A stretch of 64,000 nt of DNA, taken from the NCBI RefSeq assembly GCF_055900595.2, contig NZ_CM148325.1. The stretch is one strand, 5' to 3'. A model generated the notes under the pieces. The model was not told where the DNA came from. It saw nothing but the letters and a program-made list of their open reading frames with translations, and did no database searches. Both the position numbers and the translations under genes were made by a program. Numbering within the stretch: the stretch's first letter is position 1; the number at the start of each line of letters is the position of its first letter. Of this stretch, positions 11,018 through 51,694 are shown one piece after another.

Positions 11018-12391
11018 ATGATGGAAGGTCAACAGCACGGCGAGCAGCTAAAGCGCGGCCTTAAAAACCGCCATATTCAGCTTATCGCGCTGGGTGGCGC
11101 GATAGGGACAGGGCTATTCCTGGGTAGCGCCTCCGTAATACAGTCCGCAGGGCCAGGGATTATCCTGGGTTACGCCATTGCTGGTTTTATCGCCTTTCTG
11201 ATCATGCGTCAGCTGGGTGAAATGGTGGTCGAAGAACCTGTCGCAGGCTCCTTTAGCCACTTTGCTTATAAATACTGGGGCAGCTTTGCTGGCTTCGCCT
11301 CTGGCTGGAACTACTGGGTACTGTACGTTTTAGTTGCCATGGCAGAGCTTACTGCTGTGGGTAAATACATTCAGTTCTGGTATCCAGAAATCCCCACCTG
11401 GGTTTCTGCCGCCGTATTCTTTGTGGTGATCAACGCCATCAACCTGACCAACGTAAAAGTGTTTGGTGAGATGGAGTTCTGGTTTGCCATTATCAAAGTT
11501 ATCGCGGTGGTAGCGATGATCATCTTCGGCGGCTGGCTGCTATTCAGCGGCAACGGCGGCCCGCAGGCGAGCGTTAGCAACCTGTGGGATCAGGGCGGTT
11601 TCCTGCCGCACGGCTTCACCGGGCTGGTGATGATGATGGCGATTATCATGTTCTCGTTCGGTGGTCTGGAACTGGTGGGGATCACCGCAGCAGAAGCTGA
11701 TAACCCGGAGCAAAGCATTCCAAAAGCGACTAACCAGGTTATCTACCGCATCCTGATTTTCTATATTGGTTCGTTAGCCGTTCTGCTCTCGCTGATGCCA
11801 TGGACCCGCGTTACCGCTGATACCAGTCCGTTTGTACTGATCTTCCACGAATTGGGCGATACCTTTGTGGCGAATGCGCTAAACATCGTAGTACTGACTG
11901 CTGCGCTCTCCGTGTACAACAGCTGCGTATATTGCAACAGCCGTATGCTATTTGGGCTGGCACAACAGGGCAACGCGCCAAAAGCGCTAGCGTCTGTCGA
12001 CAAACGCGGCGTACCGGTTAACACCATTCTGGTTTCCGCGCTGGTTACAGCATTGTGCGTGCTGATTAACTACCTTGCACCGGAATCCGCATTCGGACTG
12101 TTAATGGCACTGGTAGTATCTGCACTCGTGATCAACTGGGCGATGATCAGCCTGGCGCATATGAAATTCCGTCGCGCCAAGCAGGAACAAGGTGTGGTAA
12201 CTCGCTTCCCTGCTCTGCTTTATCCGCTGGGTAACTGGATCTGCCTGCTGTTTATGGCGGCGGTACTGGTGATTATGCTGATGACCCCAGGAATGGCGAT
12301 TTCGGTATACCTGATCCCGGTATGGCTGATCGTGTTAGGTATCGGCTATCTGTTTAAAGAGAAAACCGCCAAAGCCGTAAAAGCGCATTAA
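11018..12391 (+). CDS. aroP: aromatic amino acid:H+ symporter (APC family)
   Basis: ORF track 457 aa, MMEGQQHGEQLKRGLKNRHIQLIALGGAIGTGLF...; 12 predicted TM-like hydrophobic stretches. Confidence 0.93.
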   Translation: MMEGQQHGEQLKRGLKNRHIQLIALGGAIGTGLFLGSASVIQSAGPGIILGYAIAGFIAFLIMRQLGEMVVEEPVAGSFSHFAYKYWGSFAGFASGWNYWVLYVLVAMAELTAVGKYIQFWYPEIPTWVSAAVFFVVINAINLTNVKVFGEMEFWFAIIKVIAVVAMIIFGGWLLFSGNGGPQASVSNLWDQGGFLPHGFTGLVMMMAIIMFSFGGLELVGITAAEADNPEQSIPKATNQVIYRILIFYIGSLAVLLSLMPWTRVTADTSPFVLIFHELGDTFVANALNIVVLTAALSVYNSCVYCNSRMLFGLAQQGNAPKALASVDKRGVPVNTILVSALVTALCVLINYLAPESAFGLLMALVVSALVINWAMISLAHMKFRRAKQEQGVVTRFPALLYPLGNWICLLFMAAVLVIMLMTPGMAISVYLIPVWLIVLGIGYLFKEKTAKAVKAH

Positions 12392-12399
12392 TCTCTCTA

Positions 12400-12426
12400 C
12401 GCCCTCACCCGTGCTGGGTGAGGGCG
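12400..12426. terminator. GC-rich hairpin between convergent aroP and ampE (terminator-like, weak U-tracts)
   Basis: 11-bp stem CGCCCTCACCC/GGGTGAGGGCG with 5-nt loop at 12400-12426; only short T-run follows, so intrinsic termination efficiency uncertain. Confidence 0.45.
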
Positions 12427-12433
12427 ACAATCT

Positions 12434-13288
12434 TTACACCAACGCCCCGTAAATCGTCAGTAGCGCAATTACCACCACGACCACGAACGAGGTTTTCTTC
12501 GCCATGGAAACCGCTGCCTTCGGCGTCTCCACCTTATCGACATGCGGTTCACGCGCCAGAGAGAACTGTGCCAGACGTGTTAATACCTGATATTGCGAAG
12601 TATGGAAATCACCCAGCGAAGCAAACCAGGCCGGTAACGCTTTCTCCCCATGACCGATCAAGGCATATACCACACCCGCAAGACGAACCGGCACCCAATC
12701 CAGTACATGAAGCACGGCATCAATGCCGGACTGTAAACGATGATGCGGCGTCTGGTAACGCGCCAGCCAGTATTGCCATGCACGCAAAAACGCATACCCC
12801 ATCAGCGTAACGGGTCCCCAGGTTCCCCCCACAATCAGCCAGAACAACGGAGCAAGATAAAAACGAAAGTTAATCCACAGCAATGCATTTTGCAGCTCAC
12901 GCAAATACTCACGTTCATCGCAGCCTGCCGGGACGCCGTGAATCATGGTGAGTTCGCCAGCCATCGTGGCACGGGCATGGCTATCATTACGTGAAGCAGC
13001 TGTCAGATAAGCATGATAATGAAGACGAACTTTACCTGCGCCAATACACAGCAAACCAATCAGCAGCCACACCAGCAGCGTGGGAACGTTGAACAATACT
13101 CCCTGCAATGCGCGTAACAGTAAAAAAGTCACGCCCATCGCAATAATGGTCATGCCTAATGTGCGCCCGAGAGAAAAATGTTTCACCCGCCGGAAGAACG
13201 CCTCAAGACGATGATCAAGCTGCCAGTGCTCGCCCAGCTTAAACAGGCGCTCGAAAATTAACACCAATAGGGTTGTAAACAGCGTCAT
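12434..13288 (-). CDS. ampE: inner-membrane protein AmpE
   Basis: Track ORF 12434..13327 trimmed to [16 protein letters not shown]... (284 aa); start overlaps ampD stop (ATGA). Confidence 0.9.
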
Positions 13289-45208: not shown

Positions 45209-46933
45209 TCAGGTTCTCTCCGTTTTGCTTAACCACATTTCATCCATTCCGCCCCCGCGAATCTGCATCGGGTAGACGTGCTCACTGCCATCGACGGTAA
45301 CATCAACAAAGACCAGACGATTATTGCGCACCTGTTCCAGCGCCTCGCTAAGTTTGCTTTCCAGCTCTTGCGGATGAGAAATCTGGATCCCAACATGCCC
45401 ATAGGCTTCCGCCAGACGGACGAAATCGGGTAGCGATTGCATATAAGATTGTGAATGACGGCCGGAATAGATCATGTCCTGCCACTGCTTCACCATCCCC
45501 AGATAGCGATTATTGAGATTCACCACCAATACCGGCAACTCGTATTGCAAGGCGGTTGACAGTTCCTGAATGTTCATCTGAATACTGCCGTCACCAGTGA
45601 CGCAAACCACGGTTTCTTCTGGCAGCGCCATTTTGACACCCAGTGCCGCAGGTAAACCAAACCCCATCGTGCCGAGGCCACCAGAGTTAATCCAGCGACG
45701 CGGTTTGTCGAAAGGATAATAAAGTGCGGCGAACATCTGGTGCTGCCCGACATCAGACGTCACGTAAGCGTCCCCCTTCGTCAGCCGCCAAAGAGTCTCG
45801 ATAACCGCCTGCGGTTTAATCTTTTCACTGTGAATATCGTATTTCAGGCACTGACGAGCACGCCACAGTTCAATCTGCTGCCACCAATCGCGGATCTCAT
45901 CCAGCGGTTGATGGGCGGATTCTTGCGACAGGAGTTCAAGCATTTGTTCGAGGACCTGGCGGGCATCTCCAACAATCGGGATATCAGCAGTCACAGTTTT
46001 AGAAATGGAAGTAGGATCAATATCGATATGCAGAACCGTGGCATTTGGGCAGTACTTCGCAAGATTGTTCGTCGTTCGGTCATCAAAACGTACCCCGACG
46101 GCAAAAATCACATCCGCGTTATGCATCGTCATATTGGCTTCGTAGGTGCCGTGCATTCCCAGCATGCCCAGTGCCTGACGATGCGTTGCCGGAAACGCCC
46201 CCAGCCCCATTAATGAGGAAACAACGGGCAGATTCAACGCCTCCACCGTGTCTTTCAACTGCTGATGGCAGCCCGCCGTGATTGCCCCACCGCCTACATA
46301 CACAACCGGTTTTTTTGCCGCCACCAGCGTTTGCAGAGCGCGCTTAATTTGCCCTTTATGTCCGGAGGTCGTGGGATTGTAAGATCGCATACTGACCGAC
46401 TCCGGCCAGACGTAGGGTAATTTGTTCGCAGGATTAAGAATATCTTTCGGTAAATCAACGACCACTGGTCCAGGGCGACCACTTGCCGCCAGCCAAAAAG
46501 CCTTTTTCAGCACCTGCGGAATGTCTTCCGTTTGCTTAACCAGAAAACTGTGCTTCACCACTGGGCGGGAAATTCCCACCATGTCGCACTCCTGAAAGGC
46601 ATCATAACCTATCAACGAGGTCGCTACCTGCCCGGAAAGGACAACTAATGGAATGGAATCCATATAAGCGGTGGCAATGCCAGTAATCGCATTGGTCGCC
46701 CCTGGCCCCGATGTTACCAGCACGACGCCGACTTCCCCGGTCGCGCGTGCCAGACCATCGGCCATATGCACCGCCGCCTGCTCATGACGAACTAATACAT
46801 GATCGATACCACCCACGGTATGCAATGCATCGTAAATATCAAGGACCGCGCCTCCGGGATAACCGAATACTTGTTTAACGCCCTGATCGATAAGCGATCG
46901 GACGACCATCTCGGCTCCAGACAACATCTCCAT
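45209..46933 (-). CDS. ilvI: acetolactate synthase III large subunit
   Basis: Track ORF 45209..46945 trimmed to [28 protein letters not shown]... (574 aa); TPP-binding enzyme. Confidence 0.93.
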
Positions 46934-47059
46934 GGCCTGCCTCACTGTTTAACGGAAAAATGTGTAAAACACATTAACCGCCCGATCTTGCTTAAGCAAT
47001 TGGTAGCCAGAGACATAAATACGAGGTAATAAGAATAAACAGGAGGAAAGGTGAAAAGA

Positions 47060-47090
47060 AACGATAAAATCCTCCATTACGGAGGATTAA
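47060..47090 (-). terminator. candidate intrinsic terminator downstream of leuO
   Basis: Stem AATCCTCC/GGAGGATT with 5-nt loop at 47068-47088; on the minus strand it is followed by a U-rich run (UUUUAUCGUUUCUUUUC). Confidence 0.45.
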
Positions 47091-47249
47091 ATTGATAATA
47101 AATCGGCTAAATCCCACAACTTACAGCAATTTCTCTATTTTTTTAATTAATCCTAAAATAGTGAACTCACACATTCAGAATAAAATTCTATATTCAATAA
47201 AAAATACAGAATAAATCAGTAATCAATATCTGACCTATTCTGCATTCAG

Positions 47250-48194
47250 TTAGCGTTTGCAAATTGAGACTAATTGCTCTTCCATCCACTGATGGCCTTT
47301 GTCGCGCCCGGCAGCTTCATGCCAGGAGAGATAACAGGTTCTGCTATTTTGTTTTAATGGCAGCGGTAATACCTGTAACTCTAAAGATTCAGCGAACTCT
47401 TCAGCCAGCCAACGCGGCGCAATAGCGACCAGATGCGTTTGCGACACCACGCTCAGTACACTCATCATTGCCATGCCCTGATACGCGATACTGGCTTGTT
47501 TATCTACCGTGTCATACCACGGTTGACTAAATGACGCGAAACGATCGAGCGAAACTGCCGCATGTTGTTCGTTATAAACATCATGTTTCAGTAACGGGCC
47601 TTTAATTGTTGGATGATTTTTGCTGGCTACCAGCACCATTTCATCTTTAAATAATGGCACACTGGTAAATTCAGGACGATGGAAGTCTTCATAACTAATC
47701 ACAAACTCCGTTTCCTGATAACGCAGTTGATGTTCAGTGTTCTGATTTAATGAAGACTTGAACATAACATGTATATTTGGCGCAGTTTGCTCAATGTGAT
47801 TATAAATCTGCGAGGTCAGAATGCTGTCTAACGGACTGCAAACACAAAGATGAAATACACGTTCACTGCTCGCGGGTTCAAAACCTGAACCTGGCAATTC
47901 ATTTTGTACTAATTGCAATGCCTGACGAACTGAACCAAAAAGTTGAAATGCGCGAGCAGTCGGTTGAATGCCACGGCCATAACGAACAAAAAGCTCGTCA
48001 TTAAACATCACCTTCAGGCGTGCAACCGCGTTACTGACCGCAGGTTGCGACATCCCCAGAACATGAGCGGCACGGGTGATGTTTTGCTCCTGCATCACGG
48101 CATCGAAAACGGTTAATAAGTTGAGATCGACCATGCGTAGTTGTGGCTTGCTTAACTCCGCCGTCTCTGGTTGCTCTGTTTGTACCTCTGGCAT
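47250..48194 (-). CDS. leuO: LysR-family transcriptional regulator LeuO
   Basis: Track ORF 47250..48278 trimmed to [10 protein letters not shown]... (314 aa) at ATG 48192-48194. Confidence 0.88.
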
Positions 48195-48852
48195 ACTTAA
48201 CTCCACTGTCACACTTAACTCCCTTTCCCTTATTGGAATGCAGAGAAATAATCCTCGAGAATATGATTTATCATGCATATAAAATAAGAAAAAGGAAAAT
48301 GAGAAAAATTAGGAAAACATAAAGATACGGGTTCTTATAAAAACAGAACCCATTGCCGAGTAAAGAGTCATTTACCGCAGCATAATAATCCATAATGTTT
48401 TTGTTGCGAAAACAATCTAATCATAACTACCGCGAATACTCAATCATCCACAAAATGGATTAAATGTGCTTTTTTAATAATTAATTTATATGTTTAATGC
48501 ATTAATTCTTAACATTAATCGAACAATAATATTCACCAAATGAATATCAAAAAATTAGCAAAACATATAATTCAATACAAATCATCAAGATAGGTTTTGT
48601 AACGCGTGCATTTTATCCCCCTTTTCCTCGTTGATTAGATGCAAAAATTTATTCTGAAATATGTCAACCGATGAAAAGCGTCGGTGGTTAAGCAGAAATT
48701 AATATCGCTTGTTTTAACCACCGCAGCACAATTAGCTAATTTGACGAATGCAGAACTCACTCTGGCGGAACGTTTTTGTTGCGTCAGGGTTGACATCCGT
48801 TTTTGTATCCAGTAACTCTAAAAGCATATCGTATTCATCTGGAGCTGATTTA

Positions 48853-48939
48853 ATGACTCACATCGTTCGCTTTATCGGTCTACTACTACTAAACGCATCT
48901 TCTTTGCGCGGTAGACGAGTGAGCGGCATTCAGCATTAA
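48853..48939 (+). CDS. leuL: leu operon leader peptide (28 aa, four consecutive Leu codons)
   Basis: GGAG SD then ATG 48853; [28 protein letters not shown]; Leu codons CUA x4 at 48880-48891. Confidence 0.88.
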
Positions 48940-48954
48940 GCCAGCACGCAGTCA

Positions 48955-48990
48955 AACAAAAAACCCGCGCCATTGCGCGGGTTTTTTTAT
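48955..48990 (+). terminator. leu attenuator (intrinsic terminator)
   Basis: A6-CCCGCGCC-loop-GCGCGGG-T7 at 48958-48988, between leuL and leuA. Confidence 0.88.
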
Positions 48991-49031
48991 GCCCGAAGCG
49001 AGGCGCTCAAAAAGAGACAAGGACCCAAACC

Positions 49032-51694
<2,663 letters not shown>

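Follow-up and report, generated by a model that had tools for sequence, protein, structure and literature searches.

An AT-rich spacer between leuO and the leucine operon of Escherichia coli as a probable H-NS-silenced control region

What does a long, strongly AT-rich stretch of DNA do between two divergent transcription units? We asked this of the spacer that separates leuO from the leucine operon in a window of 64,000 nucleotides (contig NZ_CM148325.1 of assembly GCF_055900595.2; the window is the whole stretch of DNA analyzed). An earlier note, made from the sequence by itself, had described 658 bp of AT-rich DNA at this place and read it as an H-NS-silenced promoter-relay locus. Our analysis confirms the observation and supports the interpretation, with qualifications that concern the transfer of H-NS data to this strain, the relay, and several sites that were missed. 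The spacer belongs to an ordinary class of regulatory region and is already known from the literature.

Position, composition and conservation of the spacer

The spacer and the gene at its left edge are as follows.

48195..48852, strand not applicable: leuO-leuL AT-rich divergent intergenic spacer, 658 bp, GC 32.7%
47250..48194, minus strand: leuO coding sequence, LysR-type regulator of 314 aa (open reading frame list; RefSeq annotation in the syntenic strain ECCNB12-2 and in K-12)

The claim that 658 bp separate leuO from the leu operon is exact from both start codons: the minus-strand ATG of leuO covers 48192-48194, and the leuL ATG occupies 48853-48855. The gene identities and the divergent layout also held, with leuO on the minus strand, leuL and leuABCD on the plus strand from 48853, and ilvIH downstream of leuO. 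The encoded LeuO is 99.0% identical in amino acids to that of K-12.

The AT-richness is pronounced. The spacer has a GC content of 0.327, compared with a window mean of 0.525 (SD 0.037 for 658-bp stretches), and it is the lowest of all 63,343 overlapping stretches of that length in the 64 kb. The spacer stands about 5.4 SD below the mean. Within it, 100-bp sub-windows reach a minimum of 0.21-0.22 around 48445-48594, and GC stays at 0.21-0.26 across about 150 bp; the other intergenic troughs in the window are clearly shallower. Relative to the window as a whole, TpA steps are 2.2 times and A4+/T4+ tracts 3.7 times as dense. The AT run quoted in the earlier note, AATTAATTTATATGTTTAATGCATTAATTC, is present at 48479-48508. 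The second deepest trough, with a minimum of 0.374, is the divergent intergenic region between pdhR and aroP (about 10475-11017). Its K-12 orthologue is likewise on the list of H-NS-bound 'promoter islands', and a RamA ChIP site is on record for aroP<>pdhR in Salmonella.

We then compared the spacer within E. coli, where it is present in 5399 of 5426 complete genomes. The K-12 spacer (NC_000913, 83709-84367) is 659 bp long, lies between the same flanking genes, and is 94.8% identical to ours from end to end, differing by 33 substitutions and one 1-bp indel without structural change. The two are identical at the marbox 15-mer, at the first SlyA site, from the leu -35 through the conserved -10 block, and in the leuO Shine-Dalgarno region; substitutions fall at 48492, in the second predicted SlyA site, and at 48311, in the BglJ-RcsB-like core. 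Against K-12, flanking whole genes are 95.6-96.9% identical and third codon positions 88-92%. Because the identity of the spacer lies between these values, it is under moderate constraint, in line with what regulatory DNA should show. In 3002 genomes the spacer is 90-95% identical to that of the window, compared with 95-99% for leuA and leuO segments of the same length. We considered the idea that it is unusually polymorphic and rejected it, since the spacer is better conserved against K-12 than third codon positions are.

Several features of individual genomes were also recorded. From ilvI through leuO to leuA (45209-50603), nucleotide divergence from K-12 is 3.1-4.4% (8-12% at third codon positions), and the proteins differ by 1-6 residues. 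Strain ECCNB12-2 (NZ_CP033635.1) has a spacer 100% identical to that of the window. In the same strain (3961000-3964500, compared with window positions 10931-12543) the T6SS gene tssD lies beside aroP where the window has pdhR, and the aroP region is 96.8% identical, so that the window derives from another genome; the identity of the spacer may reflect recombination or shared ancestry of the leu segment only. In FDAARGOS_943 (NZ_CP065615.1), an IS1 element has taken the place of leuO and of the whole spacer apart from its last 161 bp, and in about 20 other genomes less than 80% of the spacer is covered.

The arrangement extends well beyond E. coli. A DNA-pattern scan of species-representative genomes for the leu-leader signature found 120 loci. 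In 66 of these, representing 66 species and more than 20 genera, leuO stands upstream of leuL in divergent orientation. Across 52 species of Enterobacteriaceae the spacer measures 603-659 bp (mean 641, SD 15) with a GC content of 0.32-0.39, compared with 0.42-0.55 for the leuO coding sequence. Two loci labelled Enterobacter have a spacer of about 427 bp, although the leuO start is uncertain there, and in Serratia, Edaphovirga and Yersinia the spacer reaches 684-1062 bp with a GC content of 0.30-0.40. On the other side of leuO, the gap to ilvI is far more variable in length (364 ± 64 bp, compared with 641 ± 15 bp). This gap is AT-rich as well (GC about 0.30) and contains yabR, a gene of 14 aa with a GTG start (MKRNDKILHYGGLN; 47051-47095, plus strand), which overlaps a hairpin with a 9-bp stem (47068-47088) that is terminator-like on the minus strand and follows the leuO stop at a distance of about 160 nt.

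Aligning the 52 spacers with MAFFT revealed where sequence, as opposed to length, is kept. Conservation is concentrated at the end of the leuO 5'-UTR with its GGAG (48197-48226), in the proximal leuO promoter zone (48248-48325), in the marbox block (48725-48739), and at the leu promoter and the start of the leader (48787-48852). Across these species practically no alignment is possible in the middle of the spacer (about 48330-48410 and 48590-48725). Comparative sequence data of this kind show AT-richness and spacer length to be ancestral properties that are maintained across the Enterobacteriaceae; the spacer was therefore not acquired horizontally.

Promoters and regulator sites at the two ends

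At the left end, three elements face leuO.

48195..48226, minus strand: conserved end of the leuO 5'-UTR with putative Shine-Dalgarno GGAG (at least 90% column conservation, 52 species)
48265..48273, minus strand: candidate extended -10, TGnTAAATC, of the proximal leuO promoter P2 (predicted)
48310..48317, minus strand: candidate BglJ-RcsB box, TTTTCCTA, fitting the core wwTTCykA (predicted)

GGAG, the reverse complement of CTCC at 48201-48204, stands 6 nt before the leuO ATG and would serve as its Shine-Dalgarno sequence. The candidate -10 is enclosed by conserved sequence at 48261-48295, ATATGATTTA(Y)CATGCATATAAAATAAGAAAAAG, in which TG and TAAAT are kept and n varies. The BglJ-RcsB-like core reads TTTTCCTA in the window and TTTTCCGA in K-12, and is held within a second conserved block, AAAATT(A/C)GGAAAACATAAAG, at 48305-48325. 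The positions of leuO P2 and of the BglJ-RcsB box were reportedly mapped by Stratmann in 2012. In K-12, leuO is silent in laboratory growth through H-NS and StpA, has at least two promoters and is autoregulated by LeuO (PMC5025477, PMC3950696). The activator of P2 is BglJ-RcsB, whose box stands 57 bp before the P2 start, and the core motif wwTTCykA is quoted in the same work (PMC3950696). The position of the candidate -10 agrees with that distance and provisionally predicts a P2 start at about 48255-48259.

LeuO itself recognizes a core site that is described as a 19-bp palindrome of the form 7-N5-7 (PMC6698644). The spacer contains five candidate palindromes of this form with at most one mismatch, for example ATATTCACCAAATGAATAT at 48529-48547. 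A longer inverted repeat, CGGTGGTTAA/TTAACCACCG at 48682-48723, was dropped as a candidate because other species do not keep it and its K-12 copy is imperfect. The leu -35 region, GGTTGACAT (48788-48796), has an exact inverted copy, ATGTCAACC (48661-48669), 118 bp to the left. This copy forms a perfect TTGACA directed toward leuO (minus strand, 48667-48662) with no good -10 after it, and might be connected with P1, the distal leuO promoter.

The right end faces the leucine operon.

48726..48740, plus strand: marbox GCACAATTAGCTAAT, a MarA/SoxS/Rob site (identical to a published 15-mer; near-invariant in 52 species)
48790..48826, plus strand: leuLABCD promoter, with -35 TTGACA at 48790-48795, a 17-bp spacer and a weak -10, TAACTC, at 48813-48818
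48839..48988, plus strand: leucine operon leader and attenuator (Rfam RF00512, 147.5 bits, E = 7e-34)

Transcription of leuLABCD presumably starts near A48826, in line with the K-12 annotation. Most of the approximately 110 loci with sufficient upstream sequence have TTGACA 59-75 bp, usually about 63 bp, ahead of the leuL start codon, and its position is also kept in genera where leuO is not adjacent. In the 52-species alignment the promoter appears as the block TATCCAGTA(A/C)C(T/A)CTAAAAGCATAT; the -10 is TAACTC in the window and TACCAC in most other genera. A simple sigma-70 and terminator scan of 2.2 kb gave three promoter-like sites where 5.5 were expected, and hence no enrichment; with its weak -10, the known leu promoter escapes the scan. 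The Rfam score of the leader that follows compares with a gathering score of 50, and the Pfam family PF08054 scores 73.4 bits against 25 (E = 1e-20). Leaders of this type combine a peptide rich in consecutive Leu codons with alternative hairpins and a terminator. leuL occupies 48853-48939 on the plus strand, the terminator hairpin lies at 48958-48987 (inverted repeat I3), and leuA starts at 49032 on the same strand. Only the first 14 nt of the leader overlap the spacer.

The marbox was absent from the earlier note. From its 3' end to the leu -35 hexamer downstream there are 49 bp, its block is among the best conserved of the spacer in the 52-species footprint, and the asymmetric form GCAC-N-...-GCTAAA found at 48726-48740 is consistent with a marbox. 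The window 15-mer agrees with the consensus gcactaattgctaaa quoted in PMC5684230 at 11 of 15 positions, and an identical sequence, gcacaattagctaat, is listed in Table 1 of that paper as the MarA ChIP-seq site 'leuL<>leuO' of E. coli H10407, with in-vitro binding scored +++. The corresponding Salmonella Typhimurium sequence, GCACAATTAGCTAAA, is bound by MarA, Rob and SoxS (PMC10268841, Table 1). The site resembles those of marbox-dependent promoters in being a ChIP-seq and in-vitro MarA target that is bound by SoxS and Rob in Salmonella. The texts examined from these two ChIP-seq papers state no regulatory effect of the marbox on leuL or leuO. A perfect palindrome, AATTAGCTAATT at 48730-48741, overlaps the marbox; we dropped it as a LeuO or SlyA site because a string match in the literature identified it with the published marbox. 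In its position the site differs from typical marbox promoters, the inferred leu start lying about 93 bp downstream of its center. In the classification of Martin and Rosner, class I and II marboxes are said to overlap the -35 or to be centered near -62 or -72.

H-NS, SlyA and the promoter relay

Published work on K-12 places H-NS and SlyA on the orthologous DNA, and the following intervals can be transferred to the window.

48239..48663, strand not applicable: equivalent of a K-12 'promoter island', with coordinates carried over through the K-12 alignment
48195..48538, strand not applicable: equivalent of the 344-bp K-12 fragment that binds SlyA in gel shifts (primers TC51/TC52; PMC5797941)
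48486..48505, strand not applicable: two overlapping predicted SlyA sites, given as 305 and 297 bp upstream of leuO (PMC5797941)

The K-12 island (83898, 426 bp) is H-NS-bound in all three of the data sets compiled, those of Grainger, Kahramanoglou and Oshima (PMC3661553, Table 1), and leuO carries the H-NS marks G, K and O in another compilation (PMC5797941, Table 2). In Salmonella, H-NS at the leuO promoter region silences leuO, and silencing is relieved by upstream transcription or by supercoiling (PMC6797219, PMC10981669). From the 95% identity and the base composition, we infer that the spacer would also be occupied and silenced by H-NS in the strain from which the window comes.

Does this predicted affinity depend on particular sites? 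The high-affinity H-NS motif is the 10-bp sequence tCGATAAATT (PMC2094087; Lang et al., 2007), although AT-rich H-NS regions may hold no copy of it (PMC2094087). In the spacer we found no match to it within one mismatch. With at most two mismatches there are three matches, compared with 2.3 ± 1.5 in dinucleotide-preserving shuffles; with at most three there are 21, compared with 16 ± 3.7. Matches at two or three mismatches are 3.4-3.8 times denser in the spacer than in the whole window, but they are not enriched over the shuffles. The prediction of H-NS binding thus comes from composition, namely AT content, TpA steps and A-tracts, and no particular site underlies it. The proposal that the AT runs are H-NS nucleation sites accordingly stands as far as composition is concerned, whereas a specific nucleation motif was not borne out, the shuffles explaining the matches.

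The same AT run has a further content that the earlier note did not mention, for both predicted SlyA sites fall within it. One, TTAATGCATTAA at 48494-48505, is a perfect 12-bp palindrome in a palindrome scan; the other, TTATATGTTTAA at 48486-48497, is one substitution away from K-12. Of the primers that define the SlyA-binding fragment, TC52 corresponds to 48195-48218 without change, and the complement of TC51 to 48514-48538 with two mismatches.

In these properties the spacer resembles other E. coli promoters that H-NS silences and antagonists counter-silence. Like bgl, yjjQ-bglJ, cas and proU, it has AT-rich upstream DNA of the kind bound by H-NS and StpA, and all of these loci, leuO included, are activated by LeuO, BglJ-RcsB or SlyA acting as antagonists. 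Those four are mostly accessory or cryptic, whereas the leuO spacer is ancestral, part of the core genome, and adjacent to a housekeeping biosynthetic operon.

The relay is a different matter. It was in leu-500 strains of Salmonella Typhimurium that a promoter relay was established (PMC4264507), in which local supercoiling activates ilvIH, leuO and leuABCD in succession and the spacer provides an AT-rich silencer and LeuO sites. PMC4264507, PMC6797219 and PMC10981669 cite Fang and Wu (1998) and Chen et al. (2001-2005) for this locus. The gene order and orientation of that locus are identical to those of the window, where ilvI (45209-46933) and leuO (47250-48194) are codirectional on the minus strand and leuL and leuA run on the plus strand from 48853. 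In the two subspecies of Salmonella enterica sampled, the spacer is nearly equal in length (645-655 bp) and equally AT-rich (GC 0.33), and it shares the leu promoter, marbox and proximal leuO promoter blocks with E. coli. However, it is in the central part that the AT-rich silencer and the H-NS nucleation site of Salmonella were defined, and the center cannot be aligned with E. coli. The demonstrations were made in leu-500 backgrounds of Salmonella and not in E. coli, and in the literature examined we found no demonstration of a relay in E. coli. The description of the locus as a promoter relay therefore holds for its gene order; the relay proper is a Salmonella result, which synteny alone would extend to the window.

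Alternative readings and the control of two divergent units

Might the AT-rich stretch instead be what remains of a small genomic island, gained by horizontal transfer and silenced as foreign by H-NS? The K-12 region does overlap a GIST-predicted genomic island and a predicted foreign gene (PMC3661553, Table 1), and the GC content lies 20 points under that of its surroundings. Yet the layout of leuO, spacer and leuL recurs in all 66 species and is similarly AT-rich throughout, spacer length is nearly constant within the Enterobacteriaceae, practically every complete E. coli genome has the region, and no mobile-element features or flanking repeats were found. Synteny has largely refuted a foreign origin, which we regard as barely conceivable. 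An unannotated gene, for a small protein or a small RNA, would make the AT-richness incidental. The spacer is long by bacterial intergenic standards, the gap between leuO and ilvI next door contains the recently annotated yabR in K-12, and the ORF list includes seven frames of 20-63 aa within or overlapping the spacer. Against this, when six of the seven (all but the 20-aa ORF at 48309-48371) were compared with Pfam, the sole match was leuL itself. That match sits inside a 63-aa in-frame upstream extension of leuL that starts upstream of the leu promoter and is closed in another E. coli. The remaining ORFs lie in the middle segments that are least conserved across the 52 species. Rfam at E <= 1 returned from 46500-49500 only the Leu leader and weak terminator look-alikes, and RefSeq annotates no feature in the spacer of K-12 or of the matching E. 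coli genomes listed. The earlier judgement that there is no convincing ORF thus survives, and a hidden gene strikes us as highly improbable.

A third possibility is that AT-richness is simply the ordinary composition of a long intergenic region that bears promoters, with H-NS binding passively and adding nothing to the regulation exerted by the specific factors. Composition accounts for the motif matches, the sequence in the middle of the spacer can change freely, and the second deepest trough of the window, between pdhR and aroP, is likewise a divergent promoter region. Nevertheless, leuO is de-repressed in E. coli hns and hns stpA mutants (PMC5025477, PMC3950696), and its silencing in Salmonella is H-NS-dependent (PMC6797219). 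The central trough is also far deeper than the other intergenic troughs of the window. Moreover, AT-richness and length are held while the sequence turns over, which argues for selection on composition and geometry. We therefore consider a purely passive role very unlikely.

The reading that we favor, and with considerable confidence, is that the spacer is a shared control region of two divergent units, leuO on one side and leuL with leuABCD on the other, whose AT-rich middle is coated by H-NS and StpA and can be counter-silenced. At its right end, a promoter with a strong -35 and a weak -10 would feed the leucine attenuator, with the marbox upstream; at its left end would lie the leuO ribosome-binding site, the proximal leuO promoter and a box of the BglJ-RcsB type. 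H-NS and StpA on the middle would keep leuO off in ordinary growth, as published for K-12 and Salmonella and as we expect here. Proteins that bind within the coated DNA, namely BglJ-RcsB, SlyA, LeuO itself and LrhA, would relieve this silencing. Negative supercoiling or transcription invading from neighboring promoters could also lift it, and would be the basis of the Salmonella relay. LeuO for its part binds the leuLABCD promoter region, where 2-isopropylmalate enhances its binding (PMC12494820).

A more speculative proposal concerns the marbox. Compared with the usual class I position it is three helical turns farther out, and it faces away from leuO; the spacer, moreover, combines a fixed length with a free middle. 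Taken together, these properties could mean that the stress regulators MarA, SoxS and Rob bound or counteract the H-NS filament there, as a boundary or a counter-silencer, and that selection would hold the promoters at a fixed distance so that supercoils or bridges can couple leucine biosynthesis with the LeuO regulon. We put this forward tentatively, as a possibility that is more probably wrong than right.

What the analysis adds to the earlier account is a map of the spacer in window coordinates, containing the leuLABCD promoter, the leuO promoters and the published SlyA sites, together with three points that the first reading had missed: the spacer is ancestral and conserved in length, its H-NS affinity is compositional rather than motif-based, and it contains a conserved marbox. 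As a discovery the locus offers little; its significance is that of a textbook case, in which H-NS silencing and counter-silencing are combined with neighboring promoters coupled by supercoiling.
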